A stretch of DNA of 32,000 nucleotides from an uncultured Syntrophobacter sp. (GTDB lineage: Bacteria > Desulfobacterota > Desulfofervidia > Desulfofervidales > DG-60), in contig CAZNJP010000002.1 in NCBI GenBank assembly GCA_964573345.1, positions 9,916 through 41,915 of the forward strand, written 5' to 3'. The position numbers and the translations under genes were made by a program. Below the pieces are notes generated by a model. It saw only the letters and a program-made list of their open reading frames with translations, was not told the origin of the DNA and did no database searches. Below, in pieces: positions 8,664 to 32,000 of the stretch (positions are counted from its first letter, which is position 1; every line of letters begins with the position of its first letter).

Positions 8664-8685
8664 TCCAAAGGGATAAAAAGGTTAA

Positions 8686-9188: not shown

Positions 9189-9199
9189 GATAGACAGAG

Positions 9200-10124: not shown

Positions 10125-10263
10125 ATAAGAATAGTTAAATAGTTGAACCAAAAATTGGAGAATCGTTGAATGGTTAAATCGTAGAATTATGGAACCGTCA
10201 AACCGAATCAACGAATTAACTAATTAACGAGTTTACTAATTTGGATAATTAGGGGGTCATAAA

Positions 10264-16094: not shown

Positions 16095-16125
16095 TATTAA
16101 GATTTTACTATACATGGAGGCTTAA

Positions 16126-17601: not shown

Positions 17602-19467
17602 GTGCTCCCACAGAAGATTGCCTATTTAAACTTAGACACCACGGATGTTGAAATTAAAGAAATCCCCAAAAAAATAACCAAAAAATTTCTAGGTGGACGC
17701 GGGATAAATATGTATTTGCTTTATAATCATGTCAAACCTGAAACAGACCCCTTGTCTTCAGAAAATCCACTCATTATCGGACCAGGGCTTTTAACAGGAT
17801 TAAAGGGCATAAGTGCTAGTAGATGCAATATTTCTGGAAAATCTCCTGAAACAGGGCTTTTGGGGGATTCAAATATAGGTGGTTATTTTGGGGCATTCAT
17901 GAAAAGGACAGGCATTGACTATTTATTTATTACTGGTGCCTCAAAAAGGCCCGTTTATATCTATTTAGACGATGAGGGAATCAGTATAGAAGATGCCAAG
18001 GATTTATGGGGAAAATGTACTACAGAAACTAATACTATCTTAAAAAAACGCTATGGCCCATCAAGTCAGTCTATTTCTATTGGAATAGCAGGGGAGAATT
18101 TAGTACGCTTTGCCTGCATTATTAACAGGAAGAAGAACGCTGCTGGCAGGACTGGCATGGGTTGCCTTATGGGGGCCAAAAAGATAAAGGCCATTGTAGC
18201 AAATGGTAAAAAGGTCTTAAAGCCAAAAGATGAACCCAGATTTAATGAATTAATAAAAGACCTTCATCAAAAATTAGATAAAGAACCTTTAGTTAAAGTA
18301 CTCAGCGAATTTGGTTCTGTCCATCTTTTTAAGCTTATTAATGAGCAGATTGGTATGGGAAGGGTCTACAATGGACTTTCTATGACATTTCCAGAAAACA
18401 AAGATATTTCACCTGATATATTGAAAGAAAAATACTATACAGGAAAGGCAGGTTGCTTTTCCTGCCCTGTTGCCTGCCAGCATAGATACAAAGTTAATGA
18501 GATAAAAAGTGAAGGGCCAGAATATACCATTCTTGCTAGTTTTGGTCCTGTTGTAGGAATAAAAAGATTAGAAACAGTTCTTTATATAAACGACCTAATA
18601 AATAGCTATGGCCTGGATGCTAGTTCCACATCAAACCTTATTGCCTGGGCCATCGAACTATTTAAGAAAGGTCTAATAGATGAAGAGATAACCAATGGAC
18701 TGAAACTCGATTGGGGAGATGAAGAAGCAATTATAGAGTTGATTCACCAAATTGCCCATAGGAAAAGCTTTGGTGACATTTTGGCTAATGGGGCAAAAGA
18801 GGCAGTAAGGCAATTGGGTGAAAAAACAAGCAAATATATTATTTGGACAAAGTATCTACCCCAATCAGACCCAGTGGATTTAAGGTACCTTCCAGCTTAT
18901 GCCTTAGGTAATTCAGTGGCTTCAAGGGGTTCTGACCATTTAAGAAGTCGACCTACCTGGGAGGCCTATGGCCTTTCTGAGGAACAGTTAAAGGCCATTT
19001 ATGGTGGACATGTTTCTCCAAATCCCTGTAGCTATGAAGGAAAAGGAAGAGTTATCTGGTGGTGGGAAACTTATCTTTCCCTTTTTGATGCCTTGGGCCT
19101 TTGTAAGCTTATTGCCTTCCATTGTCGGCCTGGCTTGCTCAGTTTTGAATTTTTCTCAGAGTTGATTCGCTATGCCACTGATCTTGATCTAACACCTCAA
19201 GAAATCTTTGAGGTAGGGGAAAGAATCGTAAACCTAGAGAGGATGTTTATTGTAAAGAAGGAAATAAAAAGGCAGGATGACTTTCCACCTCAAAGGTACT
19301 TTGAACCACTAGTTTACCAGGAAGGCCTAACCCCTGAGAAAAAAGATTTAAAGCTGGATAAGGCAGGCTTTCATCAAATGCTTGATGAATACTATCAACT
19401 TCGTGGATGGGATAAAGAGGGTAGGCCTTTAGATGAAACAAAAGTGCGTTTGGGTTTAAGCCAATGA
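17602..19467 (+). CDS. Aldehyde:ferredoxin oxidoreductase family (tungsto/molybdopterin) enzyme
   Basis: GTG start after AGGAGG. AOR N-terminal domain (KIAYLNLDT...FLGGRG). 4Fe-4S ligands GCFSCPVACQH plus DALGLCKL. Full AOR length (621 aa). Confidence 0.9.
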   Translation: MLPQKIAYLNLDTTDVEIKEIPKKITKKFLGGRGINMYLLYNHVKPETDPLSSENPLIIGPGLLTGLKGISASRCNISGKSPETGLLGDSNIGGYFGAFMKRTGIDYLFITGASKRPVYIYLDDEGISIEDAKDLWGKCTTETNTILKKRYGPSSQSISIGIAGENLVRFACIINRKKNAAGRTGMGCLMGAKKIKAIVANGKKVLKPKDEPRFNELIKDLHQKLDKEPLVKVLSEFGSVHLFKLINEQIGMGRVYNGLSMTFPENKDISPDILKEKYYTGKAGCFSCPVACQHRYKVNEIKSEGPEYTILASFGPVVGIKRLETVLYINDLINSYGLDASSTSNLIAWAIELFKKGLIDEEITNGLKLDWGDEEAIIELIHQIAHRKSFGDILANGAKEAVRQLGEKTSKYIIWTKYLPQSDPVDLRYLPAYALGNSVASRGSDHLRSRPTWEAYGLSEEQLKAIYGGHVSPNPCSYEGKGRVIWWWETYLSLFDALGLCKLIAFHCRPGLLSFEFFSELIRYATDLDLTPQEIFEVGERIVNLERMFIVKKEIKRQDDFPPQRYFEPLVYQEGLTPEKKDLKLDKAGFHQMLDEYYQLRGWDKEGRPLDETKVRLGLSQ

Positions 19468-20537
19468 AGGTAGCAATAATTGGGGCAGGGGCAATAGGTA
19501 GTTTAGTAGCTGGTTATCTTAGCAAAGAAGGTATGGATGTCACTTTAGTTGGTAAAAGGCGGGATGTTTTAGCTATCAAGGAAAATGGCCTTATCATAGA
19601 AGGAGTAAGAGGGAGAATAGTTATTCCAGTTAATGTTACGAATAAATTAGGAAATGCGGATTTTATCATCTTGGCCGTTAAGACACAAGACATTGTTTCG
19701 GCCTTAAACGAGAATATCCAGGTCTTAAAAGATGCCCCTATCCTTACGGTGCAGAATGGGGTTAGGGCCGAAGAGATTCTTTTGAAGTTTGTTCCCAAGG
19801 AAAGGATTATTGGCAGCATTATCATGTTTGGAGCAACATACCTTGAACCAGGAAGAATTCTACACAATTTTGAAGGGGATTGGATAATTGGAAAAGTATT
19901 TGTTCAGAATGATGAAAAGGTTGAAACAATAGTAAATCTTTTAAACAAGGCATTTCCTGTCCACACAACAGAAGAAGTAAGGGAAATGAAATGGCTAAAG
20001 CTCTTTTTAAACCTAAATAATTGCCTTCCTGCCTTAGTAGGGAAAAGTATGCAAGAGACATTTTCTGATTTGGAGACCTGTAAGTTAAGTATCCGCCTCT
20101 TGTATGAGGCATTGATGGTGGTTGATAAGGCAGAAATTAAATTAAAATCCCTACCAGATTTTCCTGTAGAAAGGGTTCGGGCATTGACAGAGATGTCGCT
20201 AGAAGAAGCAAGCAAGATATTTTCAAAAATAATGACCAACTTGAGTGAGACGCCTCTTTATGGCTCTATCCTTCAAAGTATAAAGAGAAAAAGACCATCA
20301 GAAATTGACTATTTTAACGGAGAGATAGTCTCTTTAGGAAAAAAGCTAGGGTTGTCTGCACCTCTAAATAAAAAGGTAGTTGAGATGGTGCACGAAGTGG
20401 AGAGGAAAGGTGAGTTTTTTAGGCCAAAAGATATTTTAAATAAATTTAACTGTTTACCACAGAGAACGCAGAGACCACAAAGACGTCCCTCTGCGAGCTC
20501 TGTGAGCTCTGTGGTGAACGATCACAAACAAATTTAA
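19464..20537 (+). CDS. 2-dehydropantoate 2-reductase (PanE/ApbA) family oxidoreductase with repeat-derived C-terminal tail
   Basis: MKVAIIGAGAIGSLVAGYL dinucleotide fold, ILAVKTQD, SILQSIKRKRPSEIDYFNGEIV family motif. ATGA overlap with the AOR stop. The last ~25 codons (LPQRTQRPQRRPSASSVSSVVNDHKQI) run through the palindromic repeat at 20454-20518. Confidence 0.8.
   Translation: MKVAIIGAGAIGSLVAGYLSKEGMDVTLVGKRRDVLAIKENGLIIEGVRGRIVIPVNVTNKLGNADFIILAVKTQDIVSALNENIQVLKDAPILTVQNGVRAEEILLKFVPKERIIGSIIMFGATYLEPGRILHNFEGDWIIGKVFVQNDEKVETIVNLLNKAFPVHTTEEVREMKWLKLFLNLNNCLPALVGKSMQETFSDLETCKLSIRLLYEALMVVDKAEIKLKSLPDFPVERVRALTEMSLEEASKIFSKIMTNLSETPLYGSILQSIKRKRPSEIDYFNGEIVSLGKKLGLSAPLNKKVVEMVHEVERKGEFFRPKDILNKFNCLPQRTQRPQRRPSASSVSSVVNDHKQI
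20454..20518. repeat. Palindromic pair of family A (ttcaccRcagag) units
   Basis: The forward arm is ttaccacagagaacgcagaga. The reverse complement of tctgcgagctctgtgagctctgtggtgaa is ttcaccacagagctcacagagctcgcaga. The two arms can form a long imperfect hairpin. Confidence 0.65.
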
Positions 20538-20548: not shown

Positions 20549-21124
20549 ATGGAATTAAAGTTTCCTAAGCTTCTGGTCAGTATAAGCAAGATTAGAGAAA
20601 AATGCTATCAGGGATATAAAGAAGGGGATAAATTTATCTTTCAAGACTTTACTAAAACCCCTCAAGGCTTTTGTCAAGGGGCCGCCACCGTGCTTTTCCC
20701 CTGTCTTTATGCCTTAACCTTTGGGGCAGAGTTTCCCTTTGAGGAAAATCCCCGTTCTATCCATACCAGTTGTCCTGATGGAGGGAGGGTAGAGTTTTTT
20801 ACCCAAGTGCTGACTGAAGCAGGGGAAATAGAAATCGGAAAAAAACAGGAACAAATAGGGCCAAAACCAAAGAAGATGATTCTCAGTGTAGAGGAAGTAA
20901 GAGGAAGGTGTTTTTATGGCTATAAGGCAGGAGATACCTTTGAAATAACCGGACTTAGCACTCCAAAGAATTTTTGCGGTGGTGCCTATAATGCCCTGTT
21001 CCCTGTGTTTTTTGCCTTAAATTTTGGGGCAAAATATCCATTTACTGAAGATGGAGGAACAATTTCTCGTGTGACCTGCCCAGATGGGGCAAACATTAGG
21101 TTTAAAGTAAGGAGAATGGAATAA
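20549..21124 (+). CDS. Tandem-domain TIGR04076-like protein (unknown function)
   Basis: Two ~90-aa halves share the pattern C..GYK.GD.F......P..FC.GA...LFP...AL.FGA..PF........CPDG..(V/I).F, which I recognise as the TIGR04076 small Cys-rich family. Confidence 0.55.
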   Translation: MELKFPKLLVSISKIREKCYQGYKEGDKFIFQDFTKTPQGFCQGAATVLFPCLYALTFGAEFPFEENPRSIHTSCPDGGRVEFFTQVLTEAGEIEIGKKQEQIGPKPKKMILSVEEVRGRCFYGYKAGDTFEITGLSTPKNFCGGAYNALFPVFFALNFGAKYPFTEDGGTISRVTCPDGANIRFKVRRME

Positions 21125-21161: not shown

Positions 21162-21198
21162 TTAAGTTATTTTTTGTTTTCCGCTGAGAAGGCGGAAA

Positions 21199-21267
21199 GT
21201 AAACCACCCCACCCTTCCGGGTAGGGCATTGTTAAAGGTCCCCCACACCAATTTTTGGTGTGGGGGT
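21199..21267 (-). repeat. 69-bp inverted repeat, right copy
   Basis: gtaaaccaccccacccttccgggtagggcattgttaaaggtcccccacaccaatttttggtgtgggggt. This is the reverse complement of 16026-16094 except for one base (gggtaggg versus gggtgggg). Confidence 0.9.
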
Positions 21268-21282: not shown

Positions 21283-22545
21283 ATGAGGAAAAGGGTGGTA
21301 GTTACAGGTATAGGGGTGCTTTCCCCAAATGGTATTGGAAAAGAGGCATTTTGGGAAGGGATGATTTCAGGCAAATCAGGGGTAAGGCGTGTAACGGATT
21401 TTGATGTTTCTCAATTTCATTCCCAGATTGCTGCAGAAGTAAAAGATTTTGACCCATTTAGCTTTGGCTTGACGGCTGAGGAAGTAGAAAGGATGGATCG
21501 TTATGTCCAGTTTGCCGTTGTAGGAACAGAGATGGCAATAGAGGATGCAAAAATTCTTTTAGATAAAGAAGAAAAGGAGAGAGTGGGTGTTTGTTTGGCC
21601 AATGCCATCTGTGGCACAAGGTATATGGAAGAGGAATTTGTTAGGGTAACAAATGGTGGAAAAGAACCTATAGACCCGAAAAAAGTAAGACCATACCTTT
21701 ATGATGCCTCTATGTTTAATACCCCTGCGAGTGAAATATCGGCACGCTATCGATCAAAGGGCATTTGCACCACAGTTTCTACTGGTTGCACCGCAGGCAC
21801 AGATGCTGTGGGCTTTGCTTATGAAGTCATTCAAAATGGAGAGGCAGATATTATGATTACTGGTGCCTCTGAAGCGCCCCTTTGTGCCATTACCTTTGCT
21901 GCATTTGATGTCTTAAAGGTAATATCGGCCAGAAATGATGAGCCAGAAAGGGCATCAAGGCCCTTTGATAAAGAAAGGGATGGTTTTGTGCTCTCTGAGG
22001 GTTGCGGCATCTTAATCTTAGAAGAATTGGATCATGCCTTAAGGCGAGGGGCTCATATCTATTGTGAAATCACAGGTTTTGGCACCTGCTGTAATGCCTA
22101 TCATATGACAGATTTACCATCAGATGGTGATAGTATGGTTGTTTCTATAAATTTTGCCTTAAAAGATGCAGAATTGTCTCCTGAGGACATAGGTTATGTC
22201 AATGCCCATGGTAGTTCTACTAAACAAAATGATATATTTGAAACCAATGCCTATAAAACAGTCTTTGGCAAAAAAGCCTATGAGACCCCTATAAGTTCTC
22301 TTAAATCCATGATTGGCCATCCTTTGGCTGCGGCCAACAGCATAGAACTTATTGCCAGTGCCCTTATTTTTGAAAGGGACATTTTACCACCCACCATAAA
22401 TCAAGAGGCGCCTGACCCTGTATGCGATTTGGACTACATTGCTAATAAGGCCCGAGAAAAACGCATCAATCACATACTTAAAACCAGCAGTGGCTTTGCT
22501 GGTGTCCATTCCTCAATGGTATTGAGCAGACGGAATTCAAAATGA
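21283..22545 (+). CDS. Beta-ketoacyl synthase, KS-alpha type (active Cys-His-His)
   Basis: ORF 21229..22545. Its first 18 codons lie inside the inverted repeat, so the start is placed at ATG 21283 (MRKRVVVTGIG). Active-site VSTGCTAG (Cys codon tgc 21787-21789), AYHMT and VNAHGSST histidines, SLKSMIGH. Confidence 0.9.
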   Translation: MRKRVVVTGIGVLSPNGIGKEAFWEGMISGKSGVRRVTDFDVSQFHSQIAAEVKDFDPFSFGLTAEEVERMDRYVQFAVVGTEMAIEDAKILLDKEEKERVGVCLANAICGTRYMEEEFVRVTNGGKEPIDPKKVRPYLYDASMFNTPASEISARYRSKGICTTVSTGCTAGTDAVGFAYEVIQNGEADIMITGASEAPLCAITFAAFDVLKVISARNDEPERASRPFDKERDGFVLSEGCGILILEELDHALRRGAHIYCEITGFGTCCNAYHMTDLPSDGDSMVVSINFALKDAELSPEDIGYVNAHGSSTKQNDIFETNAYKTVFGKKAYETPISSLKSMIGHPLAAANSIELIASALIFERDILPPTINQEAPDPVCDLDYIANKAREKRINHILKTSSGFAGVHSSMVLSRRNSK

Positions 22546-23759
22546 AAAATATAGCTATTACAGGGATAGGTATAGTAGCTCCTCCTGGAATTGGAAAAGA
22601 GGTATTTTGGCAAAATATTAAAGAAGGAAAAACCTTTATTTCTCCAATTACAAGGTTTGATGCCTCAAACTATCCTTTACAAGTAGCAGGCCAAATCGAA
22701 AATCTAAACACAGACCATCTTTCTCGCCGCCTCTTAAAAAAGATAGACAATTTTTCGGTTATGGCCTTGACTGCTACAGAAGAGGCCTTAAAAGACGCAT
22801 CTTTGGATTTAACCAAAGAAGACCCTTATAAGATTGGAATCTTTACAGGAAATGCCTTAGGGGGATGGCTCTATGCCGAGACTGAATTGCGTGACCTTTA
22901 TGTAGAAGGCAGAGAAGGGGTAAGCCCATATCTGGCCAGTGCCTGGTTTCCAGCGGCCCCTCAAGGTCAAATCTCTATCTATTATGGCATAAAGGGATAC
23001 AGTAAGACAATGGTGGCAGACAGGGCAAGTGCTCTAATAGCCATTGCCTATGCCGCTCAGGTAGTTGGAAATAGAAAATTAGACATTGCCTTAGCTGGAG
23101 GTACTGAGGCACCGGTTACCCCTTATGCATTACTTTGCTGCAGCACAGAGGGCTCACTTTCAAAAGGTCCTTATCGCCCCTTTGATAAAGAAAGGGATGG
23201 ATTTGTTATCGGTGAAGGAGCAGGGATCGTAATCTTAGAAAATGTGGAAAATGCCTTAAAAAGGGGAGCGACAATTTATGGGTTGATTGCAGGTTATGGG
23301 AATTCTTGTGATGGTACTGATCGCATAATGCCAGATCCTAACGGCAAAGGGCTGTCTCTGGCGATAAACATTGCTTTAGATATGGCTGGTTATAAGCCCA
23401 GAGATATTGATTATATCTGTGCCGATGGGACAGCAACAAAATTAGGAGATATTAGCGAAACAAGAGCAATAAAAGAGGTATTCGATAATTATGCCAAAAA
23501 GATACCTGTCAGTGCACCAAAATCCATGTTTGGGCATTTACTGGGGGCATCTGGTGCAGTAGACCTCATCATCACCCTTTTGGCGATGCAAGATGGGGTT
23601 GCCCCTCCTACTATAAATTATCAAACAGAAGACCCTGAATGTAACTTAGATTATGTGCCTAATGAAAGCCGGTCTAAAGAAATTAAAAGGGCCCTTATTA
23701 CATCTCGTGGTCGAGGGGGCATAAACGCAGTTTTGGCTATAGAAAGGCCCGCCTGCTAG
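22542..23759 (+). CDS. KS-beta / chain-length-factor-like partner lacking the catalytic triad
   Basis: ATGA overlap with KS-alpha. Same fold (RPFDKERDGFVIGEGAG, APKSMFGH). However, Arg161 (agg 23022-23024) aligns with the KS Cys / CLF Gln, and ICADGTAT replaces VNAHGSST. Confidence 0.85.
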   Translation: MKNIAITGIGIVAPPGIGKEVFWQNIKEGKTFISPITRFDASNYPLQVAGQIENLNTDHLSRRLLKKIDNFSVMALTATEEALKDASLDLTKEDPYKIGIFTGNALGGWLYAETELRDLYVEGREGVSPYLASAWFPAAPQGQISIYYGIKGYSKTMVADRASALIAIAYAAQVVGNRKLDIALAGGTEAPVTPYALLCCSTEGSLSKGPYRPFDKERDGFVIGEGAGIVILENVENALKRGATIYGLIAGYGNSCDGTDRIMPDPNGKGLSLAINIALDMAGYKPRDIDYICADGTATKLGDISETRAIKEVFDNYAKKIPVSAPKSMFGHLLGASGAVDLIITLLAMQDGVAPPTINYQTEDPECNLDYVPNESRSKEIKRALITSRGRGGINAVLAIERPAC

Positions 23760-23781
23760 CTTGCACAGCTAAGCGGGCGGG
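23748..23781 (+). promoter_or_regulatory. GC-rich hairpin (family B) spanning the KS-beta stop, immediately before the ACP ribosome-binding site
   Basis: cccgcctgctagct-tgcac-agctaagcgggcggg. It shares cccgcctgcta with 2544-2554. No T-run follows, so it is not called a terminator. Confidence 0.5.
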
Positions 23782-23797
23782 TTTGGGAGGTGAAATT

Positions 23798-24049
23798 ATG
23801 GAAGGTATTGAAGGAAAAATAAAAAACTTATTTGTCAAACTCTTTGATGTTAGGCCAGATGAGGTAACAAAAGAGGCAAACCTTAATGATGACCTAGGAA
23901 TGGACTCAACAGAGATGGTAGAATTGACAGTAGCTTTAGAAAAGGAGTTCAAGGTGAAGATTAAAGATGGTGAGATTACAAATGAACACTCTGTAGGTGA
24001 CGTCCTAAGGATTGTGGAGAATAAGCTTAACCCTGTTGATTTGTCCTAA
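23798..24049 (+). CDS. Acyl carrier protein
   Basis: ORF 23783..24049. Start placed at ATG 23798 after GGAGGTG. The phosphopantetheine site DLGMDSTEMVEL is in an ~83-aa helical protein. Confidence 0.85.
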   Translation: MEGIEGKIKNLFVKLFDVRPDEVTKEANLNDDLGMDSTEMVELTVALEKEFKVKIKDGEITNEHSVGDVLRIVENKLNPVDLS

Positions 24050-24106
24050 AGGACACCTAATCAACAGGGTGAATCTCCATTAAATAGGGATTTAACAGGG
24101 CAAGCA

Positions 24107-24913
24107 ATGAAGATTATAGACCTGAGCCTTCCTATTGATGATAGCATATTTGAACCTATTCCAGTAAAAATAAAGCGATGGAAACACAAAAGAGGCGGAA
24201 ATCGCTTTGGTTTGAGGTGGGCCGCCTCTAAAGGTATGAGAGGTATTTTAAATTATATTACAGGGAAAGAGAGGATTACGCATCGCTCCTTTAAAGATGG
24301 GGTCTTTTTGGCCTTGGAGCAAGTTACTGCAACTGTGCACACAGGCACCCATCTTGATGCCCCATATCATTATGGACCTCTTTCTGAGGGAAAAGAGGCA
24401 AAGAAGATAGAAGAGATTCCTTTAGAATGGTGTTATGGTAATGGCGTTGTCTTAGACCTTTCTCACAAAAGGCCAGGAGAATTTATCACCAAAGAAGACA
24501 TAAAAAAGGCGCTTGATAAAATAAAATATGAGATAAAACCCTTTGACATTGTGCTTATTCACACTGGGGCAGATAGATTTTGGGGAGGAAAAGAATATTT
24601 TTCTCATTTTCCAGGGATGAGTAGGGAGGCAGTGGCCTATATTTTGGAATTTAAAGTAAAGGTCATTGGAATTGATGCCTTTAGTTTTGACCGCCCATTT
24701 TACACTATGTTAAGAGATTTTTTAAAGACAAAAGACAATCGTTATCTCTGGCCGGCCCATTTTTATGGAAGAGAAAAGGAGTATTGCCATATAGAAAGAC
24801 TGGCTAATCTGGATAAGATTCCAGAACCTTATGGCTTTAAAGTGGCCTGTTTCCCTATAAAGATAAAAGGGGCAGGCGCGGGCTGGATAAGGGCTGTAGC
24901 CATCATTGAATAA
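24107..24913 (+). CDS. Cyclase-family protein (PF04199, kynurenine-formamidase-like / putative polyketide cyclase)
   Basis: The metal-binding signature HTGTHLDAPYH (H.GTH.D.P.H) is diagnostic of this family. Confidence 0.8.
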   Translation: MKIIDLSLPIDDSIFEPIPVKIKRWKHKRGGNRFGLRWAASKGMRGILNYITGKERITHRSFKDGVFLALEQVTATVHTGTHLDAPYHYGPLSEGKEAKKIEEIPLEWCYGNGVVLDLSHKRPGEFITKEDIKKALDKIKYEIKPFDIVLIHTGADRFWGGKEYFSHFPGMSREAVAYILEFKVKVIGIDAFSFDRPFYTMLRDFLKTKDNRYLWPAHFYGREKEYCHIERLANLDKIPEPYGFKVACFPIKIKGAGAGWIRAVAIIE

Positions 24914-24931
24914 AAAAAAGGAGGAAAAAAA

Positions 24932-25378
24932 ATGGGACACACAGTAAATTCTATTATGATTGAGGCACCTTATGATTTGGTGTTTGATATTTCAAATGAT
25001 ATTGAAAGATGGACAGAGCTATTTGGTGGGGAATACAAAGAGGCAAAGATATTAAAAAAAGAAGAAAACAAAATTACCTTTCAGTTGACCGATGCCAATG
25101 GTAATTCCTGGCAATCCTTTCGTCTTTTATTTAAGGATTACTACTTTACTTATGCCCAAAAACTTGAGCCAGCATTTCCTTTTAAGTACATGAAGATTAT
25201 CTGGCTCTATACCCCTATGTCTGACAGGATACTCATGACCTGGATTCAGGATTTTACGATGGCAGATGGAGCAAAATTTAATGATGAGCAAGTTGAAGGT
25301 TTTATTAATAAGCATTCAAGGGATAATCTAAAGATATTTAAAGAGGTAATAGAGAAAGAGGCGAAGAATAAGAAGTAA
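24932..25378 (+). CDS. SRPBCC-fold polyketide cyclase/aromatase-like protein
   Basis: 148 aa. The N-terminus SIMIEAPYDLVFDISNDIERWTELFGG follows the Polyketide_cyc2 / ARO-CYC pattern (S..V.AP...V.....D.ERWPELFP). Confidence 0.7.
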   Translation: MGHTVNSIMIEAPYDLVFDISNDIERWTELFGGEYKEAKILKKEENKITFQLTDANGNSWQSFRLLFKDYYFTYAQKLEPAFPFKYMKIIWLYTPMSDRILMTWIQDFTMADGAKFNDEQVEGFINKHSRDNLKIFKEVIEKEAKNKK

Positions 25379-25395
25379 GGAGAGTGGGGGTAAAA

Positions 25396-26169
25396 ATGGA
25401 TAATTTAAAAGGTAAAATGGCTATAATTACAGGGGCTAGTAGAGGGATTGGCAAGGCAATTGCTGAAATACTGGCAAAAGAGGGGATGAATCTTGTGATT
25501 GCGGCCCGTGGTAAAGAAATGCTTGAAGAAACTGCAAAAGAACTATCTGAAAAATATAATGTAAAAGCATTGTCTGTGTCCTGCGATGTTTCAAAGCAAA
25601 AGGATTTAGAAAATCTGGTAAATGTCTCTGTTAAAGAGTTTAAAAAGATAGATGCATTAATCAACAGTGCCGGCATAAGCAGCCAATATCCTTTTCATGA
25701 GCAACCATTAGAAGACATTCCAAGGCTTATGTATACAAATTACTTTGGTGCAGTGATGCTTATACGTTTAATCATAAATCACTTTATAGAAAATAAAGGT
25801 GGGGCCATCATAAATGTTGTCTCTGGCTCTACCTTAGTAGACCCCCCACCAAGAAACTTTATTATCTATACCTCGCTTAAGCAGGCATTAAGGGCCTTTG
25901 GAAAGGGGCTTTTTTGGGAATTGCGGGATTTTGGCATAAAGGTGACTTCAATCATGCCTGGGGTAACAGATACAGCCTTAACCCAGGGGTTAAAGGAGGT
26001 TTCTGTAGACAAGTCCCGTCTTATAAATACCAAGGCTATAGAGGATGCAGTGAAGTTTGCGCTCTCTGTGCCGGCAAATGTCTGTCCTTTAGAGATTTCG
26101 GTTATCAATCAGCGCACGCCTTGGATAAGGCCAGTCATTCCATACAAGCAGGAGCACCCCGTTAAATAA
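25396..26169 (+). CDS. Short-chain dehydrogenase/reductase (ketoreductase)
   Basis: ORF 25384..26169 (GTG). ATG 25396 is preferred. TGASRGIG cofactor motif, NVVSGS and YTSLK (YxxxK) catalytic residues. Confidence 0.85.
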   Translation: MDNLKGKMAIITGASRGIGKAIAEILAKEGMNLVIAARGKEMLEETAKELSEKYNVKALSVSCDVSKQKDLENLVNVSVKEFKKIDALINSAGISSQYPFHEQPLEDIPRLMYTNYFGAVMLIRLIINHFIENKGGAIINVVSGSTLVDPPPRNFIIYTSLKQALRAFGKGLFWELRDFGIKVTSIMPGVTDTALTQGLKEVSVDKSRLINTKAIEDAVKFALSVPANVCPLEISVINQRTPWIRPVIPYKQEHPVK

Positions 26170-26195
26170 AAATTTAACAAGGCAAGTCCAAAAAA

Positions 26196-27104
26196 ATGAT
26201 TTTTGATGCCCATACACACTGGCTTCCAAAAGAGATTATTGAAAATGCCCAGTTTTTTTCCAATGTTTGGGGTGATATTGAAAGGCAATTGGTCATAATG
26301 GATGAATTTAAGATTGACAAAGCACTTTTGGTCTATCCTACAACTGATGCTTATAAAAAGATGGGTCTAAAGGAAGTAGCAAGGGTTTATAATAATTCCA
26401 TTGCTGAAATAGTAAATAAATACCCTGAAAGACTTGTTGGGGCAGCCATCTTACCCATAGATGACCCAAAGGAGATAATAAAAGAATTTGACCGTGCGAT
26501 TGAAGTATTGGGATTTAAGGCCATTTCTCTTGCCACAAGTTTTGATGATATGTATTTAGATGATGAAAAATTTTATCCACTTTATGAAAAGGCAGAGGCA
26601 TTAAGCATTCCTATTTTTGTCCATCCACAAATCATAAACCCGATAGGTTATGAGCGGGTAAAAGACCCTTTGCTTACCCCGGTGATTGAATTTGTGTTTG
26701 ATACCACGATGTGCATTGGGAAATTGATGGTAGCAGGCATATTTAAAAAATTTCCAGATTTAAAATTTGTCTTTGCCCACTTAGGGGGGGTGATACCATT
26801 TATTAAAGAAAGATTTGACAGCATATACAAAATGCTTAGAGAAAGAAATATAGTCAAAGACCTCTTTGCCCTCCCTAGCGAATATTTGAAACAGATATAT
26901 GTAGATACAAGTGGGGCTGTATCCCATTCTGCCCTTATGGGCACTATTGAGATGGTAGGGATAGAGCATATTTTATGGGGTAGCGATTACCCTGGAAATC
27001 CCAATATATCAGCATCGATCAAGGCCATAGAGGAATTAAAGATACCTGAAGAAGAAAAGAAAAAAATATTGGGTGAAAATATGGTTAGATCGTTGATTCG
27101 TTAA
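26196..27104 (+). CDS. Amidohydrolase_2 (PF04909) family metal-dependent hydrolase/decarboxylase
   Basis: FDAHTHW (HxH), VHPQ, FAHLGG and WGSDYP metal ligands in TIM-barrel order. The family includes non-oxidative aromatic-acid decarboxylases. Confidence 0.8.
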   Translation: MIFDAHTHWLPKEIIENAQFFSNVWGDIERQLVIMDEFKIDKALLVYPTTDAYKKMGLKEVARVYNNSIAEIVNKYPERLVGAAILPIDDPKEIIKEFDRAIEVLGFKAISLATSFDDMYLDDEKFYPLYEKAEALSIPIFVHPQIINPIGYERVKDPLLTPVIEFVFDTTMCIGKLMVAGIFKKFPDLKFVFAHLGGVIPFIKERFDSIYKMLRERNIVKDLFALPSEYLKQIYVDTSGAVSHSALMGTIEMVGIEHILWGSDYPGNPNISASIKAIEELKIPEEEKKKILGENMVRSLIR

Positions 27105-27208
27105 ATCGAAAATTGGTTAGATCGTTAAATTTAAGAAGAAGCACTTAACGATGAACGGTTTTACTATTTGACGAATTGACGAATTAACTATTTAACAAGT
27201 ATTTTCAG

Positions 27209-28117
27209 ATGAAAGGGTTGATATTTAATGTCCAACATTACTCTATTCACGATGGTCCAGGTATAAGGACCACTGTATTCTTGAAAGGATGTCCTCTAAG
27301 GTGTATATGGTGTTCCAATCCAGAAGGACAAAAAGCGATTCCCGAGATTCTTTATAACAAGAATATGTGTAATAAGTGTTATAAGTGTATAGATGCTTGC
27401 CCATATAGGGCCATTAGTATTACTCAGGAAGGATTTATCGCTATTAATGGAGGTATCTGTAAGAGATGTAAGAAGCATGTATGTGTAAGCGCATGTGATG
27501 AAAACGCTCTTAAATCGGTGGGGCAATTTATTACCATAGGAGAATTAATGCAAGAAGTCCAAAAAGATAGCTTATTTTACCGTAATTCCAATGGTGGGGT
27601 CACTTTATCTGGGGGAGAACCAACAAATCAAGCTGAATTTACTTTGGAGTTTTTTAAAAAGTGCAAAGAAAAGGGGATTCACACTGCATTAGATACATGT
27701 GGACATACACCATGGGAGTCTTTAAAAAGGGTCTTAGAATATACTGATTTGGTTCTATATGACATCAAACATATGGATCCTGAAAAACATAAAAAAATTA
27801 CGGGAGTATCTAATGATATTATCCTAAAAAATGCGGAGGCAATATTTAATAAAAGCAAAGTGCGTACAATTATCAGAATTCCTATAATACCCAGGTACAA
27901 TGATTCAAAACAGAATATCAATGCCATTGCAAAATTTGTAAAAGAAATAGGAGGAAAGGAAGTCAATCTTCTTCCCTATCATAAGTTGGGTATAGGCAAA
28001 TATGAAAGATTGGGTATGAATTACTCTGTTAAAAATTTTCAGCCACCTTCTAAACAGACCCTTGAACAAATGAAAACAATCTTTGAGGCTCAGGGCCTTA
28101 GGTGTCTGATAATTTAG
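27209..28117 (+). CDS. Glycyl-radical enzyme activating enzyme (radical SAM)
   Basis: IFNVQHYSIHDGPGIRTTVFLKGCPLRCIWCSNPE (CX3CX2C). It also has a ferredoxin-like insert, CNKCYKCIDACP and CKRCKKHVCVSAC, typical of activases of non-PFL glycyl radical enzymes. Confidence 0.9.
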   Translation: MKGLIFNVQHYSIHDGPGIRTTVFLKGCPLRCIWCSNPEGQKAIPEILYNKNMCNKCYKCIDACPYRAISITQEGFIAINGGICKRCKKHVCVSACDENALKSVGQFITIGELMQEVQKDSLFYRNSNGGVTLSGGEPTNQAEFTLEFFKKCKEKGIHTALDTCGHTPWESLKRVLEYTDLVLYDIKHMDPEKHKKITGVSNDIILKNAEAIFNKSKVRTIIRIPIIPRYNDSKQNINAIAKFVKEIGGKEVNLLPYHKLGIGKYERLGMNYSVKNFQPPSKQTLEQMKTIFEAQGLRCLII

Positions 28118-28125
28118 GAAGTAAC

Positions 28126-30510
28126 ATGAAACACATAGTTTCAATAGAAGCTATTTTGACAGAAAGGGTGAAGAGGCTCAGAGAAGAAATCAGAAAACAA
28201 CCTGTTTATGGAGATTGGGAAAGGGATAATCTCCTAACCGAATACTGGAGGCAATCTGATGGCGAGTACATTTATTTAAGACGGGCTAAGGCGTTTCATA
28301 AAATATTGACAGAGAAAGATATAAAGATTTTTGATGGTGAACTTATTGTCGGAGCACCCACAAAATATCTTTCAGGTGGCGCATTTTACCCAGAATATAG
28401 CTGCGACTGGATAGAAAAAGAATGGGGTAAATTTACCTCAAGAGAAGGGAGTAAATTTATCCCTGTTGGTGAAAAGGAAGTAATTTTAGAAGATATCCAA
28501 TTCTGGAAAGGCAAATCTTTATTAGACAAGATATTACCTTTATTTTATGAAAAATGGAATTTATTACAAAATATGTTTGATTCTAGAATAACTGCTGGTG
28601 ATAGACCTTGTGCCCATGGGCGTCAAATAATAGATTTTGCTAAAGTGCTGAATAAAGGATTGAGAGGAATTATTGAGGAAATAAAGCAGACAAAAGAAAT
28701 CGCACCTCTGAATACCACAGAAGATTTACATAAACATTATTTTTGGGATGCCTGTATTATTGCCTGTGAGGCAGTAATTAATTTTGCTAAAAGGCATGCC
28801 GAACTTGCTAGAAAAATGGCCAAAAGTGAAATGGATAAATCAAGAAAAGTAGAACTCAAAAAGATTGTAAAGATTTGTGAATGGGTACCTGAAAATCCTG
28901 CAAGGACATTTCATGAAGCCTTGCAATCTCTATGGTTTACCCATTTGTGCGTAGAGATAGAAAACAACTCCTTTGGCTATTCTCTAGGGAGGATGGATCA
29001 ATATCTATATCCTTTTTACAAAGAGGACATAGAGGAAAGAAGAATTACAAGGGAGCAAACGGCTGAATTACTTGCATGTCTATGGCTTAAATTTAATACC
29101 ATTCATTGGATAACAAAGTGGTCAATAGCAGCGATTATCCAAACTAGTAATTTCCAAAATATTACCATAAGTGGAAGAGATAGTGAGGGAAGTGATGCTT
29201 CTAATGAGCTATCTCGCCTTATTGTAGAGGTAGATACAGCCCTAAAGTTGCCACAACCCACTCTTTCACTTAGGTATCATGATTGCATAGACGAAGATTT
29301 CCTATTTAAATGTGGTGAGGATATTGCTACAGGCGGTGGGAAACCTGCTATTTTTTGTGAGAATTATGCATATTCTGTTTTGCCTTTGTATGGGGTTCCA
29401 TTAGAAGATGTAATTGAGTTTGCACCCATTGGATGTGTAGAGATGGGAATTCCTGGGAAAACTGCTTTGTTTGCTGGCTGCTTTGTAAGCCTTCCTCATT
29501 GCCTTGAGTTAGTCTTTACAAACGGTATTCATAGAAAGATGGGTAAAAAAATAGGCATTGAAACAGGGAATGTTGAGGGTTTTTCTAGCTTTGATGAGTT
29601 TATGGATGCCTTCCTACACCAATTTGAGTTTGTTCATCACATCATAGTAAGCTATAGTAAGATTAATCAGGTAGCCATGCGGCCATATTTTGTTCCCTGT
29701 CCATTTAACTCAAGTCTGATTTCTGATTGCATTACCAAAGGTAGAGATATCCATAGTGGTGGAGCTAGGTATAACCAATTTTTCGCCTCTTATCCAGTTG
29801 GAATGGTAACCACGGCAAATTCACTCTATGTTCTTAAGAGATTGGTATATGAAGATAAAAAAATTGGCATGAAAGAACTTAAAGATGCATTGGCCGCGAA
29901 TTTTGAAGGAAAATACTGTAAGATAAAAAAGTTATGTCTAGAGGTTCCTAAGTATGGAAATGATATTGATGAAGTAGATAATATGCTTAGGGATCTATTT
30001 AAAGAAATCAGCAAGATTGTGATGCAAGAAAAGAATGCCTTTGACCATCCAATGGCCCCTGCTTACCTTGGTGTTACAGCACATTACTTTCATGGTGTAG
30101 GTTGTGGGGCCACACCTGATGGGCGCTTGGCCTATACACCTTTTGCCGATGGTTCTCTATCTGCATACCCTGGCACAGATAAAAAAAGTCCAACAGCGCT
30201 TATAAAATCAGCTACCAAGGCAAACACTACCCCAGCTGTAGCCACGCTTTTTAATATAAAATTGAATCCTTCTGTCCTAAAATCAGCAGAAGGTATGAGA
30301 AACTTTTGGAGTCTTATTAAGACCTATTCCGATCTTGGTGGATATCATGTTCAGTTTAATGTAATTGATAAAAAGACATTGCTTGAAGCAAAAAGACATC
30401 CTGAGAGATATAGAGATTTACTAATAAGGGTTGCAGGATTTAGTGCCTATTTTGTGGATTTGGCACCTGCTGTTCAGGATGAGATTATTGCCAGAACAGA
30501 ACACAAGTAA
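28126..30510 (+). CDS. Glycyl radical enzyme, Cys-x-Glu (PFL2 / dehydratase-lyase) class, substrate unknown
   Basis: ORF 28102..30510. Start placed at ATG 28126 (after the activase stop, AGGAAG upstream). Glycyl radical motif LIRVAGFSAYF (Gly codon 30436-30438). Thiyl loop PIGCVEMG (Cys 29434-29436, Glu 29440-29442). Confidence 0.9.
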   Translation: MKHIVSIEAILTERVKRLREEIRKQPVYGDWERDNLLTEYWRQSDGEYIYLRRAKAFHKILTEKDIKIFDGELIVGAPTKYLSGGAFYPEYSCDWIEKEWGKFTSREGSKFIPVGEKEVILEDIQFWKGKSLLDKILPLFYEKWNLLQNMFDSRITAGDRPCAHGRQIIDFAKVLNKGLRGIIEEIKQTKEIAPLNTTEDLHKHYFWDACIIACEAVINFAKRHAELARKMAKSEMDKSRKVELKKIVKICEWVPENPARTFHEALQSLWFTHLCVEIENNSFGYSLGRMDQYLYPFYKEDIEERRITREQTAELLACLWLKFNTIHWITKWSIAAIIQTSNFQNITISGRDSEGSDASNELSRLIVEVDTALKLPQPTLSLRYHDCIDEDFLFKCGEDIATGGGKPAIFCENYAYSVLPLYGVPLEDVIEFAPIGCVEMGIPGKTALFAGCFVSLPHCLELVFTNGIHRKMGKKIGIETGNVEGFSSFDEFMDAFLHQFEFVHHIIVSYSKINQVAMRPYFVPCPFNSSLISDCITKGRDIHSGGARYNQFFASYPVGMVTTANSLYVLKRLVYEDKKIGMKELKDALAANFEGKYCKIKKLCLEVPKYGNDIDEVDNMLRDLFKEISKIVMQEKNAFDHPMAPAYLGVTAHYFHGVGCGATPDGRLAYTPFADGSLSAYPGTDKKSPTALIKSATKANTTPAVATLFNIKLNPSVLKSAEGMRNFWSLIKTYSDLGGYHVQFNVIDKKTLLEAKRHPERYRDLLIRVAGFSAYFVDLAPAVQDEIIARTEHK

Positions 30511-30560
30511 GTCAGTGAGTCAATTGATTAACTGACAAACTAAAATAGAGGGGAAGAAAA

Positions 30561-32000
30561 ATGATAGTTTTATTTTTACAACCTCCACTTGGGAATTGGG
30601 TTAGCTGGGGAAAACATGTAGCCATTAATGTAAATCATGCCCAATTGGCTGCAAATTTACGTGAATGGCATCCAGAGATAGAGATAAGGATTTTAGAGTG
30701 TAAAGCATTAGATATAGATGAAAGAAGAATGCTTGATGCTATTAGAGAAATAGAACCTGACTTAGTTTATATGGGAGATGCCTTGCAGACTACGGGAGTT
30801 GCCGCCATTGCTCCTCGCTACAAAAGGGCAGCCAGTTTAATTGAACAGCAAAATAAAAATATAAAGATATGTGTAGGTGGATTCTATTATGGGGCAAATG
30901 CCCCTCAAATATTAAAGAAAACAAAAGAATTTGACTTTATCATTTATGGAGAGACGGAGGTAACACTGCCTGAATTAGCTAAAGAGCTAAGTAAAAAGGA
31001 GCCTGACATTCCTTCAATAAAAGGGCTTGCATATTGGGATAATGATGAATTAAAAGTTACTCCTTATCGCCCTTTATTTGAAAATTTAGATGACTTACCA
31101 CTCCCTGCATATGATTTATTTCCAATGGGAAAATACAAATATATGGAGACATATCATTCCAGAGGTTGCCCAAATGGATGTAAATTTTGTGTAGGTTGGA
31201 CAAATTACGATCCTCGTGGGAATAAAGATTGGATGCATTATCGCATAAGATCAGCTAAAAGGGTAGCTGATGAATTAGAGCTTTTAGAAAAAAGATTTGG
31301 TGTAAAATATGTGGTAATGATGGATGAGGACTTTAATGTATATCGCTCAAGGATTGAAGGATTAATAGAGGAGTTATTTAAGCGAGGACTTAAAGTGAAA
31401 TATTTCTTTATGGGGAGGGCCCCTTATTTTTTGAGAGATAAAGATTTACTCATAGACTTAAGAAAATCAGGCTTTATTCAATGTTTATTTGGCCTTGAGG
31501 TAGTAGATGAAAAAACATTAAAGAAGATTGGAAAAGGGATTACTGTTGATGAAGTAGAAGAAACAGTAGCAAGATGCAGGGAAAACAATATTGGTACCAT
31601 AATATCCTGGATGGTAGGTTTTCCTGATGACAATGAAGAGACCATCAAAAAACGTTTTGAAAGATTAGATAAGATTGACCCAGATATCTCTTCTCTTCAA
31701 ATATTAACACCACTTCCAGGTATTCCTATGTATCCTGAGATTGAGCCTTACATTGAAGAAGAAGATTTAAGTAAGTGGGATTTTTTCCATCCTGTTATAA
31801 GAACAAAATATTTAACTAGAGAAGAATTAGGAAGGCTGGCTGCTTGGTGTAATTGCGAATTCTTTAATAATCCAGAAAGGATGCATAGAATATTATTCAA
31901 TAAAAATTTAGATCCGTTCTGTAGGCTTTCTGCTAAAATTTATATAAAGACAGTAAATGCTTATACTAGAGCAGCTACTAAAGGGGAGGTATTTGTATAA
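30561..32000 (+). CDS. B12-binding-domain radical SAM protein, paralog 2
   Basis: Colinear with 16126..17592 (LPLPAYDLFPM, SRGCPNGCKFC, LKKIGKGIT, DPDI, C-terminal KGEVFV). The stop codon is the last three bases of the window. Confidence 0.8.
   Translation: MIVLFLQPPLGNWVSWGKHVAINVNHAQLAANLREWHPEIEIRILECKALDIDERRMLDAIREIEPDLVYMGDALQTTGVAAIAPRYKRAASLIEQQNKNIKICVGGFYYGANAPQILKKTKEFDFIIYGETEVTLPELAKELSKKEPDIPSIKGLAYWDNDELKVTPYRPLFENLDDLPLPAYDLFPMGKYKYMETYHSRGCPNGCKFCVGWTNYDPRGNKDWMHYRIRSAKRVADELELLEKRFGVKYVVMMDEDFNVYRSRIEGLIEELFKRGLKVKYFFMGRAPYFLRDKDLLIDLRKSGFIQCLFGLEVVDEKTLKKIGKGITVDEVEETVARCRENNIGTIISWMVGFPDDNEETIKKRFERLDKIDPDISSLQILTPLPGIPMYPEIEPYIEEEDLSKWDFFHPVIRTKYLTREELGRLAAWCNCEFFNNPERMHRILFNKNLDPFCRLSAKIYIKTVNAYTRAATKGEVFV

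Follow-up and report, generated by a model that had tools for sequence, protein, structure and literature searches.

Aromatic type II polyketide pathways are known almost wholly from aerobic actinomycetes, in which oxygenases do most of the tailoring. The few products described from strict anaerobes, clostrubin and the dendrubins among them, leave open how rings are oxidised, methylated and trimmed without O2. Here, we describe a 32-kb stretch of DNA (hereafter called the “window”) that carries a predicted type II polyketide synthase (PKS) core, composed of a ketosynthase (KSα), a partner subunit (KSβ), an acyl carrier protein (ACP) and two cyclases. The same stretch encodes two B12-binding radical S-adenosylmethionine (SAM) enzymes (rSAM1 and rSAM2), a tungsten-type aldehyde:ferredoxin oxidoreductase (AOR), and a glycyl radical enzyme (GRE) with its activase. 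We propose, with a probability of roughly 0.6, that the window is most of a ~37-kb biosynthetic gene cluster (BGC) of a Desulfofervidus-like strict anaerobe (Thermodesulfobacteriota) of oxygen-free sediment. In this proposal, the locus is an orphan type II PKS cluster of the ancestral type that would yield an aromatic product through O2-independent tailoring, with the GRE as a lineage-specific extra step.

Among the described systems, the Photorhabdus AQ-256 anthraquinone PKS (AntA-I; AntD/AntE, 6SMO) supplies the solved structure that scores best against the window KSα, namely AntD. The ant cluster is likewise a non-actinomycete system and has a TcmN-type aromatase and a further cyclase. It differs in its second subunit, as AntE is not among the best 60 PDB matches of the window KSβ. 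The ant host is a facultative aerobe and, to our knowledge, its cluster contains no B12-binding radical SAM, AOR, TIGR04076 or GRE genes.

The dendrubin (den) and clostrubin (clr) clusters are also aromatic type II PKS systems, and belong to obligate anaerobes. Both clusters are compact, and no radical enzymes have been reported from them. The dendrubin paper (PMC7693217) describes an “ancestral” architecture of ketosynthase, chain length factor (CLF), ACP, TcmN and OxyN in an anaerobe, in which the terminal carboxyl group is lost; genes for oxygenases and methyltransferases are missing from the den cluster, and its tailoring is unexplained (PMC7693217). In contrast, the window PKS is embedded with two B12-binding radical SAM enzymes, an AOR, a ketopantoate-reductase-family protein (KPR), a TIGR04076 protein and, in one lineage, a GRE.

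The ketosynthase pair has been catalogued before. Cummings et al. 2019 (PMC6638757) found type II PKS BGCs with antiSMASH in Ca. Desulfofervidus auxilii, two other Deltaproteobacteria and 11 Omnitrophica genomes, and a 2023 catalogue (PMC10132072) described a largely non-actinobacterial clade; both works include Omnitrophota, Planctomycetes, Chloroflexi and Deltaproteobacteria. The DauA/B BGC of Ca. D. auxilii almost certainly belongs to the same BGC family as the window, the species of which is a different one (~80-88% protein identity). Both works deal with the KS/CLF pair only, and terms for glycyl-radical enzymes, radical-SAM enzymes and anaerobic tailoring occur in them 0 times; a 2026 preprint on ketosynthase evolution does not mention the lineages discussed below. 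The PKS pair of Ca. D. auxilii is therefore already catalogued, with no product, while its partnership with radical and tungsten enzymes and the insertion of a GRE are undescribed in the searched literature. No paper in that literature joins a type II PKS and a GRE, consistent with the preliminary description of this DNA, whose author knew of no such characterised pathway.

Described relatives also exist for the radical enzymes. BchE, the anaerobic Mg-protoporphyrin monomethyl ester oxidative cyclase, catalyses ring closure and the introduction of a keto group in the absence of O2. Both window radical SAM enzymes share the N-terminal B12-binding domain and the CxxxCxxC core with BchE and HpnJ, which are their top NCBIfam matches. 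They are relatives rather than orthologs of BchE, since the equivalog level of the BchE model TIGR02026 is not reached (242 bits for rSAM1 and 193 bits for rSAM2, against a cut-off of 481). The GRE resembles the Cys-x-Glu GREs—the diol, glycerol and hydroxyproline dehydratases, CutC and the arylacetate decarboxylases—in score (~500 bits, 35-40% identity), glycyl radical motif, Cys-x-Glu loop and adjacent activase gene.

The polyketide synthase core

We assigned protein domains over the 32-kb window with Pfam and NCBIfam and searched for structural matches in the PDB. The core and its tailoring genes are as follows.

16126-17592, + strand: rSAM1, B12-binding radical SAM enzyme, BchE/HpnJ-like (Pfam B12-binding and Radical_SAM)
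17602-19467, + strand: AOR-family (tungsten-type) aldehyde:ferredoxin oxidoreductase (Pfam AFOR_N, AFOR_C)
19464-20537, + strand: KPR, ketopantoate-reductase-family (ApbA/PanE) oxidoreductase (Pfam ApbA, ApbA_C; TIGR00745 subfamily, 188 bits)
20549-21124, + strand: tandem TIGR04076-domain protein, Cys-rich (TIGR04076 95.7 bits, two stretches)
21283-22545, + strand: KSα, predicted type II PKS ketosynthase
22542-23759, + strand: KSβ, joined to KSα by an ATGA overlap
23798-24049, + strand: ACP (Pfam PP-binding 8.1e-11; LGMDST motif)
24107-24913, + strand: PF04199 cyclase (Pfam Cyclase 6.2e-38)
24932-25378, + strand: SRPBCC protein, predicted monodomain aromatase/cyclase (ARO/CYC; WhiE/TcmN matches in the PDB)
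25384/25396-26169, + strand: classical short-chain dehydrogenase/reductase (SDR; Pfam adh_short 4.2e-49; ATG 25396 the likelier start)
26196-27104, + strand: Amidohydro_2 enzyme (Pfam; decarboxylase matches in the PDB)
27209-28117, + strand: GRE activase (TIGR02494 371 bits, cut-off 174)
28126-30510, + strand: GRE (Pfam PFL-like 2.5e-181 and Gly_radical)
30561-32000, + strand: rSAM2, B12-binding radical SAM enzyme (Pfam; 479 amino acids, complete)

The window is low in GC (~38%), and all of its substantial open reading frames (ORFs) lie on the + strand. The preliminary description had singled out the ten genes from KSα to rSAM2 as a same-strand set, and all ten are present on the + strand with the domains it named (Pfam). 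Its account of their spacing—gaps of 18-104 nt or an ATGA overlap—is right for the KSα/KSβ overlap and wrong for two junctions, as the activase and GRE genes are 8 nt apart and the SRPBCC and SDR genes 5-17 nt. Pfam detects no oxygenase domain in the window, as had been claimed for the 32 kb; a CrtI/amine-oxidase-type flavoprotein (14078-15301) and an FMN reductase are encoded. The cluster extends beyond 21283-32000. Judging from L001, a metagenome contig with the same locus, it takes in the whole window and ~4.8 kb further downstream, where a second CrtI-like flavoprotein, a third AMP-ligase and two unknowns are followed by housekeeping genes on the opposite strand. L001 is otherwise identical to the window, apart from a 1-nt indel in the gap between the cyclase and ARO/CYC genes (24914-24931), which we deduced from a shift in the coordinate offset.

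The catalytic triad Cys/His/His of KSα is intact (TGCTAG, HGSST, GHPL) in the window copy and in all other orthologs (12/12). The best-scoring solved structure is AntD (6SMO; 394 bits, 47% identity), followed by the actinorhodin KSα (1TQY_A; 390 bits) and Bacillus FabF (376 bits). KSα shares with AntD and the actinorhodin enzyme (Act) a five-residue insertion and the motifs CNAYHMTDLPxDG and HGSSTxQND, which are absent in FabF. In a bootstrapped neighbour-joining tree of 60 sequences and 407 columns, which included no CLF reference, the KSα orthologs, 12 in number, cluster together with 100% support; their clade joins AntD and Act (96% bootstrap), with AntD as its sister (90%). These features identify KSα, by its sequence, as a predicted type II PKS ketosynthase rather than a FabF.

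KSβ has a different character. An Asp followed by Arg or Lys occupies the Cys site, and Asp or Glu the first His site, in 12/12 orthologs; in the window copy, the Cys is replaced by Arg (with Asp before it) and the first His by Asp, and the second His is kept. The view that KSβ is triad-less thus stands for the Cys and the first His, and not for the second His of this copy. The KSβ orthologs form their own 100% clade within the FabF radiation of the same tree. They are 61-87% identical to one another, and identity falls sharply to ≤45% for true FabFs. We therefore predict that KSβ is a condensation-dead, FabF-derived partner subunit and not a canonical CLF. This pairing corresponds to the “type II KS - type II FAS” pairing (FAS, fatty acid synthase) of the 2023 catalogue (PMC10132072). 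Taken together, the grouping of KSα with AntD and Act, the dead site of KSβ and the identity break argue for a dedicated system of a KSα plus a dead partner.

FabF models are the top NCBIfam matches of both subunits (KSα 472 bits, KSβ 404 bits), and both scores lie under the equivalog cut-off of 494. A housekeeping FabF pair was accordingly ruled out by these scores, the dead KSβ, the drop from 61% to 45% identity and the tree; placed against FabF, the pair is not a housekeeping one.

Next, we examined the enzymes that follow the ACP. The PF04199 protein carries the family motif HxGTHxDxPxH as HTGTHLDAPYH, read directly from the sequence, and we take this family to be that of the OxyN-type cyclases. 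The SRPBCC protein matches the WhiE and TcmN ARO/CYCs in the PDB at E ~1e-25 and keeps Tyr35, Trp65, Ser67, Arg69, Trp95, Gln110 and Asn136, with Arg82 replaced by Lys; it is thus predicted to be a TcmN/WhiE-type aromatase/cyclase with intact catalytic residues. The amidohydrolase matches LigW (7e-32), ACMSD, and the γ-resorcylate, 2,3-dihydroxybenzoate (2,3-DHBA) and salicylate decarboxylases in the PDB, and is a predicted non-oxidative aromatic-acid decarboxylase (hereafter the “decarboxylase”). The initial assignment of the locus as a type II PKS is borne out by the KSα phylogeny, the Cys-less KSβ, the DS site of the ACP and the TcmN/WhiE-type ARO/CYC. The assignment of the SDR as the PKS ketoreductase has to be given up: the enzyme is not of the ActKR type, and generic SDRs (gluconate and glucose dehydrogenases) are its top PDB matches.

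The conserved cassette and the radical enzymes

In order to compare the locus with its relatives, we mapped the window proteins onto KSβ-ortholog loci found in genomes and metagenomes and through exact-protein look-ups. These loci are coded L001 and onward, the taxon names attached to them are the labels of metagenome-assembled genome (MAG) records, and many of their contigs are short. A conserved cassette emerges, consisting of KPR, the TIGR04076 protein, KSα, KSβ, ACP, the cyclase, ARO/CYC, usually the SDR, and the decarboxylase, often with a B12-binding radical SAM enzyme and a tungsten AOR. The records that carry it bear the labels Dehalococcoidales, Syntrophaceae, Omnitrophota, Planctomycetia and Thermodesulfobacteriota. 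The GRE does not belong to this conserved system, and the wider and more robust pattern—B12-binding radical SAM, AOR, KPR and TIGR04076 genes with the PKS across five lineages—had been overlooked.

Every locus in which the sequence upstream of KSα can be seen has KPR, which, like the TIGR04076 protein, is strictly syntenic with the PKS. Orthologs of rSAM1 are found in 11 related loci, and an AOR accompanies the cassette in nine. Genes further upstream in the window, which are listed below, recur as well. The pair of aldolase-SCP2 and aldehyde dehydrogenase (ALDH) genes accompanies the cassette in five loci, with aldolase orthologs adjoining it in L011, L012, L094, L096 and L098, and in Planctomycetia-type loci the ALDH and aldolase genes lie upstream of rSAM1. 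MMPL and LolA-like genes are found with the cassette in L013 and L098, and orthologs of the CrtI-like flavoprotein and FMN reductase are linked to it in L013, L088, L091 and L098. The run of ten genes that begins with AOR and ends with the decarboxylase has housekeeping genes as immediate neighbours in L087 and L089, indicating that the core is self-contained.

The B12-binding domain scores 46.2 bits in rSAM1 and 32.1 bits, exactly at the cut-off, in rSAM2; both proteins match Radical_SAM, and rSAM2 carries the CxxxCxxC core in the motif GCPNGCKFC. A neighbour-joining tree of the B12-binding radical SAM enzymes has a 100% split between the rSAM1 type and the rSAM2 type. The clade of the former contains ten of the rSAM1 orthologs (the remaining one is truncated at the edge of L090). 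The latter includes the enzymes encoded directly 3′ of the decarboxylase in the GRE-less L011 and L094, again with 100% split support. The closest solved structure to the AOR is the Pyrococcus AOR (335 bits). A BamB-type dearomatising reductase was considered and rejected, as BamB scores 191 bits.

The TIGR04076 protein has 178 relatives only, a large share of them on contigs that match those of the KSβ orthologs in length, and each of its two repeats contains three invariant Cys residues and a CPD motif. Its AF2 model (pLDDT 94) has no fold match in the PDB (best Foldseek E = 0.1). On the basis of this model, the protein may represent a new metal- or cluster-binding fold, and it might exchange electrons with AOR or KPR, which are encoded next to it.

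The start codon of the GRE is ATG 28126, which is preceded by an AGGAAG Shine-Dalgarno sequence, and not GTG 28102 of the longest ORF, and its 794-residue product is the only one on record. It is full-length, with the motifs RVAGFS (glycyl radical) and GCVEMG (Cys-x-Glu loop), and the activase has CxxxCxxC and ferredoxin-like clusters. The ~500-bit scores are obtained with each of the uncharacterised GRE 8ID1, the propanediol and glycerol dehydratases and CutC; similarity is lower to the arylacetate decarboxylases and far lower to the X-succinate synthases and PFL, and no NCBIfam equivalog model is reached. In the alignment with propanediol dehydratase (5I2A), His166 is replaced by Arg and Asp452 by Ala. 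Since these residues bind the diol in the propanediol and glycerol dehydratases, a diol or glycerol dehydratase was rejected. An X-succinate synthase was also rejected, because BSS scores 277 bits and MasD ~269 bits against ~500 bits for the eliminases, and the intergenic spaces contain no ORFs for small subunits. The substituted Arg is part of a motif, G-R-Q-[IV]-[VI]-[DN]-F, which is kept in an uncharacterised clade down to 46% identity. By these sequence criteria, the GRE is assigned to this uncharacterised Cys-x-Glu clade. It may act on an intermediate of anionic or phenolic character, by elimination or by decarboxylation. The same family shows an unusual expansion on L003, a 10.9-kb metagenome contig (1-10892), which carries three full tandem GRE paralogs (60-66% identical to the window GRE) and a C-terminal fragment, with DUF1329/LolA-like genes interleaved among them and no activase gene on the contig.

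Proposed pathway and alternative readings

How would this locus make an aromatic compound without O2? From the gene content, catalytic motifs, phylogeny and synteny described above, we infer the product class, the chain length, each tailoring role and the action of the GRE on the polyketide.

Chain assembly: The active KSα, the dead KSβ and the ACP would build a poly-β-keto chain. The TcmN/WhiE-type ARO/CYC and the PF04199 (OxyN-type) cyclase would then fold this chain into an aromatic ring system, and the LigW/ACMSD-type amidohydrolase would take off the terminal carboxyl group. By analogy with the sister AntD clade and the dendrubins, we expect a polyphenol scaffold of ~C16-C20, probably similar to an anthrone or a naphthol.

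Tailoring and export: O2-free tailoring and redox steps would be carried out by the two BchE/HpnJ-like B12-binding radical SAM enzymes, the tungsten-type AOR, KPR, the SDR, the TIGR04076 protein and the CrtI-like flavoproteins. The B12-binding radical SAM enzymes, the AOR, the reductases and the TIGR04076 protein likely form an O2-independent tailoring and redox set, with radical enzymes that would stand in for oxygenases. The AMP-ligases, the DUF374 protein and the MMPL/LolA-like/DUF1302 set would provide acyl activation and the export of a hydrophobic product.

The GRE step: In the Desulfofervidus-like lineage only, the GRE and its activase would have been inserted between the decarboxylase and rSAM2. 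Judging from the gene context, their most likely contribution is a single radical reaction confined to this lineage, in which a polyketide intermediate would undergo elimination (dehydroxylation) or decarboxylation. A fuller version is tentative: in it, the GRE directly decarboxylates or dehydroxylates the polyketide, the BchE-like enzymes replace anthrone/ring oxygenases or C-methylases, and the product is an anaerobic quinone- or phenol-type compound.

The cassette thus offers concrete candidate enzymes—the B12-binding radical SAM enzymes, the tungsten-type AOR and the TIGR04076 protein—for the missing O2-free chemistry, and the Desulfofervidus lineage is a natural plus/minus experiment for the GRE step. 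If the fuller version is true, this would be the first GRE-tailored polyketide, and the BchE-like enzymes would be the long-sought oxygen-independent substitutes for oxygenases. The host group, of ecological importance, comprises syntrophic partners in anaerobic methane and alkane oxidation, and an aromatic metabolite in such hosts would be of interest beyond enzymology: a redox-active product in the sulfate-reducing partner of methane- or alkane-oxidising archaea could matter for interspecies electron transfer.

Several observations weigh against this proposal. KSβ scores higher with FabF (321 bits) than with the actinorhodin CLF (251 bits), and the canonical CLF Gln is not found at the Cys position in the 12 orthologs, which have Arg or Lys there. 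The SDR has no ActKR or HedKR match in the PDB at E 1e-25 or better. DauA/B of D. auxilii was expressed in E. coli and was not among the three soluble pairs (PMC6638757). The remaining points concern the GRE. The GRE and its activase are absent downstream of the decarboxylase in 12 of the 16 assessable loci, including close relatives by KSβ identity (L100, 84%, in which a nucleoside-phosphorylase-like gene follows the decarboxylase; L087, 81%; L092, 79%), implying that the GRE is not needed for the core product. The four loci that have both are the window (= L001), L002, L088 and L090, the last of which is a Ca. Desulfofervidus auxilii MAG (KSβ 82%, GRE 83% identical to the window). These loci are not independent, as they belong to a single clade, and the linkage is effectively a single evolutionary event. 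Moreover, GRE homologs at ≤66% identity have no KS on their contigs. The expectation that KS, GRE and B12-binding radical SAM genes co-occur elsewhere is hence realised in L002, L088 and L090, and fails in the 12 loci without the GRE.

These last points lead to the strongest alternative, which we regard as unlikely: the PKS cassette is real, and the activase-GRE-rSAM2 module is a functionally separate neighbour, the substrate of which could be a hydrophobic compound, imported or residing in the membrane, that the MMPL/DUF1329/DUF1302 proteins process. It would account for the absence of the GRE from the 12 loci and for the confinement of the GRE-plus loci to one clade. In a concatenated five-protein, neighbour-joining locus tree, these four loci and L091 form a 100% clade, and the GRE-less, rearranged L091 is nested inside at 89%, which suggests one GRE gain and a later loss in L091. 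L091 (KSβ 84%) carries at 11133-12415 a duplicated 3′ fragment of the decarboxylase gene and a small opposite-strand ORF, and looks rearranged exactly where its sister genomes have the GRE module.

The neighbourhoods of more distant GREs also bear on this alternative. Homologs at 57-66% identity occur with DUF1329 and MMPL genes and without KS, and the window has its own MMPL/DUF1329/DUF1302 set: L003 has the tandem paralogs with DUF1329 genes, and the GRE of L004 is surrounded by DUF1329, Mo-hydroxylase, flavoprotein and MMPL genes, while that of L006 is alone with its activase. However, MMPL and LolA-like genes also accompany the GRE-less L013 and L098. Closer homologs, in L171 (77%) and L172 (72%), keep the activase and the rSAM2 ortholog, although the GRE-side synteny at 72-77% identity rests on 5-kb contigs; in L171, the trio lies behind two Methyltransf_2/Dimerisation O-methyltransferases, a phenol-methylating family. 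The GRE is therefore not found only with catabolic genes, as it accompanies the PKS in four loci, yet its homologs at ≤66% identity do occur in non-PKS contexts.

The gene order speaks against a separate module. The window has a 104-nt gap between the decarboxylase and activase genes, with a repeated AT-rich motif (CGAATTRACKAATTAAC, described below) that may be the module's own promoter, and a 50-nt gap between GRE and rSAM2. However, these decarboxylase and activase genes share a 4-nt overlap in L002, L088 and L090, and the motif also precedes AMP-ligase 1, which suggests co-regulation. We found no terminator in the two gaps (27105-27208 and 30511-30560; 9 terminators overall against 11 expected), and no Rfam family, riboswitch or other known RNA, at gathering score in the intergenic gaps. 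Because rSAM2-type genes directly follow the decarboxylase in the GRE-less L011 and L094, the ancestral order would be decarboxylase and then rSAM2, so that the activase-GRE pair sits between two cassette genes. This arrangement argues for the recruitment of the pair into the operon. In addition, further biosynthetic-type genes follow the GRE module in the window locus (as seen in L001).

Improbable, in our judgement, is a specialised non-aromatic lipid—a modified or cyclised fatty acid, ladderane-like or aryl-polyene-like—with the KS pair in an FAS-like elongation. The position of KSβ in the FabF radiation and the 472 bits of KSα on the FabF model are compatible with it; MMPL, LolA-like, SCP2 and acyltransferase-like genes hint at a lipid-like product; and proposed ladderane clusters feature a similar gene content (B12-binding radical SAM enzymes, CrtI-like desaturases, AMP-ligases and a KS pair). 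The 2023 catalogue (PMC10132072) classes many such pairs as “type II KS - type II FAS”. On the other side, the tree places KSα with AntD and Act (96%), and the protein has PKS-specific motifs, the TcmN/WhiE-type ARO/CYC keeps its catalytic residues, the cluster includes an aromatic-acid decarboxylase homolog, and Pfam detects no FabZ/FabA-type dehydratase or enoyl reductase domain in the window. Two particular forms were considered and rejected. A ladderane-type cluster, prompted by the radical SAM enzymes, CrtI-like flavoproteins, AMP-ligases and KS pair, conflicts with the scores of 88 and 93 bits on the ladderane radical SAM model TIGR04072 (cut-off 360) and with the TcmN-type cyclase. An aryl-polyene cluster, prompted by the LolA-like, MMPL and AMP-ligase genes, which are common with such clusters at the family level only, conflicts with the lack of a dehydratase in the window and the aromatic-type KSα.

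A catabolic cluster for anaerobic aromatic or hydrocarbon breakdown, by GRE activation, CoA ligases, AOR and a reversible (de)carboxylase, is highly improbable: GREs, AMP-ligases, AOR-family enzymes and amidohydrolase_2 (de)carboxylases do occur in anaerobic aromatic catabolism, the MMPL, DUF1329 and DUF1302 proteins could be an uptake system and the lineage is Thermodesulfobacteriota, but no known degradation pathway makes use of an ACP, a KS heterodimer or a TcmN-type cyclase, the GRE does not belong to the X-succinate synthases and lacks small subunits, the AOR is not BamB-like, and the core is compact and housekeeping-flanked in L087 and L089.

Flanking genes, repeats and neighbouring loci

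The remaining features of the window are as follows.

9-932, + strand: class II aldolase-SCP2 lipid-binding fusion (Pfam Aldolase_II 2.8e-32, SCP2 1e-06)
889-2361, + strand: aldehyde dehydrogenase, ALDH (Pfam Aldedh 4.9e-125)
2743-5064, + strand: MMPL/HAE3-type RND transporter (Pfam MMPL; NCBIfam HAE3 190 bits, under cut-off)
5061-5939 and 6012-6896, + strand: two tandem LolA-like/DUF1329 genes (Pfam LolA_like 2.4e-34 and 1.3e-33)
7110-8663, + strand: DUF1302 family protein (Pfam DUF1302 7.7e-13)
9200-9838, + strand: DUF374 protein, acyltransferase-like (Pfam DUF374 1.7e-24; weak Acyltransferase match)
10264-11757 and 12454-13920, + strand: two paralogous AMP-forming acyl/aryl-CoA ligase-like genes (Pfam AMP-binding 1.6e-82 and 1.2e-77)
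14078-15301 and 15235-16023, + strand: CrtI/amine-oxidase-type flavoprotein and FMN reductase-like protein (Pfam)
16026-16095, no strand: 70-nt dispersed repeat, copy 1 (contains a GC-rich palindrome; 99% complementary to 21198-21267)
21198-21267, no strand: 70-nt dispersed repeat, copy 2 (within the gap that precedes KSα, which is unusually long)
27092-27200, + strand: AT-rich tandem 8-mer motif CGAATTRACKAATTAAC upstream of the activase gene (also at 10204-10240, upstream of AMP-ligase 1)

The 5′ end of the aldolase-SCP2 gene probably lies beyond the start of the window. The MMPL/HAE3-type transporter is a putative exporter of the hydrophobic product, and the DUF1302 protein is presumably the outer-membrane partner of DUF1329/MMPL systems. 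The LolA-like pair is a tandem duplicate with 87% nucleotide identity. The top NCBIfam match of the AMP-ligases is a long-chain-fatty-acid-CoA ligase subfamily, under its cut-off. Between the two ligase genes (11758-12445) lie a small ORF and a nucleotidyltransferase gene (DUF6036/AbiEii-like), and a related nucleotidyltransferase family is found inside an Omnitrophota version of the cluster (L010, 6655-7248). The window gene could be a toxin-antitoxin-like passenger or a genuine component of the pathway.

The two copies of the 70-nt repeat are inverted and 99% identical, and bracket the rSAM1-AOR-KPR-TIGR04076 block. Their palindrome has the form CCCCCACACC-W7-GGTGTGGGGG. The 158-nt gap before KSα, in which copy 2 lies, folds at -64 kcal/mol (z = -6.2), and the corresponding junction measures only 2-6 nt in the relatives. 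Of the 175 retrieved loci, the identical L001 alone contains the element, which looks like a repetitive extragenic palindromic (REP)- or miniature inverted-repeat transposable element (MITE)-like insertion. The motif CGAATTRACKAATTAAC has five matches against 0 expected, all of them in the gaps before AMP-ligase 1 and the activase gene, and is found in this genome only; a common operator or promoter is conceivable, as is a small repeat. Two more intergenic repeat families (6996-7078, 8674-8712 and 9160-9196) flank the DUF1302 gene and a 23S-rRNA-IVP-family gene.

In some related loci, genes for a PNP/MTA-phosphorylase-family protein and an MtnA-type isomerase come after the cassette, and a class II aldolase gene is close by (L013, 17443-19706; L098, 20042-20968; L100, 4033-4266). 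Together with the aldolase and ALDH genes of the window (9-2361), they resemble a 5′-deoxyadenosine “DHAP shunt” (DHAP, dihydroxyacetone phosphate) that clears an inhibitory by-product of radical SAM enzymes, with all scores under the equivalog cut-offs; such a shunt would be a plausible housekeeping accessory where radical SAM enzymes abound. This likeness does not explain the SCP2 fusion. In the Dehalococcoidales-like, GRE-less L087 (16221-20979) and L089 (14930-19658), the PKS cassette is adjoined by a pyrrolysine gene set, comprising a PylS-like tRNA synthetase, a PylB-like radical SAM protein, a PylC-like ATP-grasp protein and PylD.

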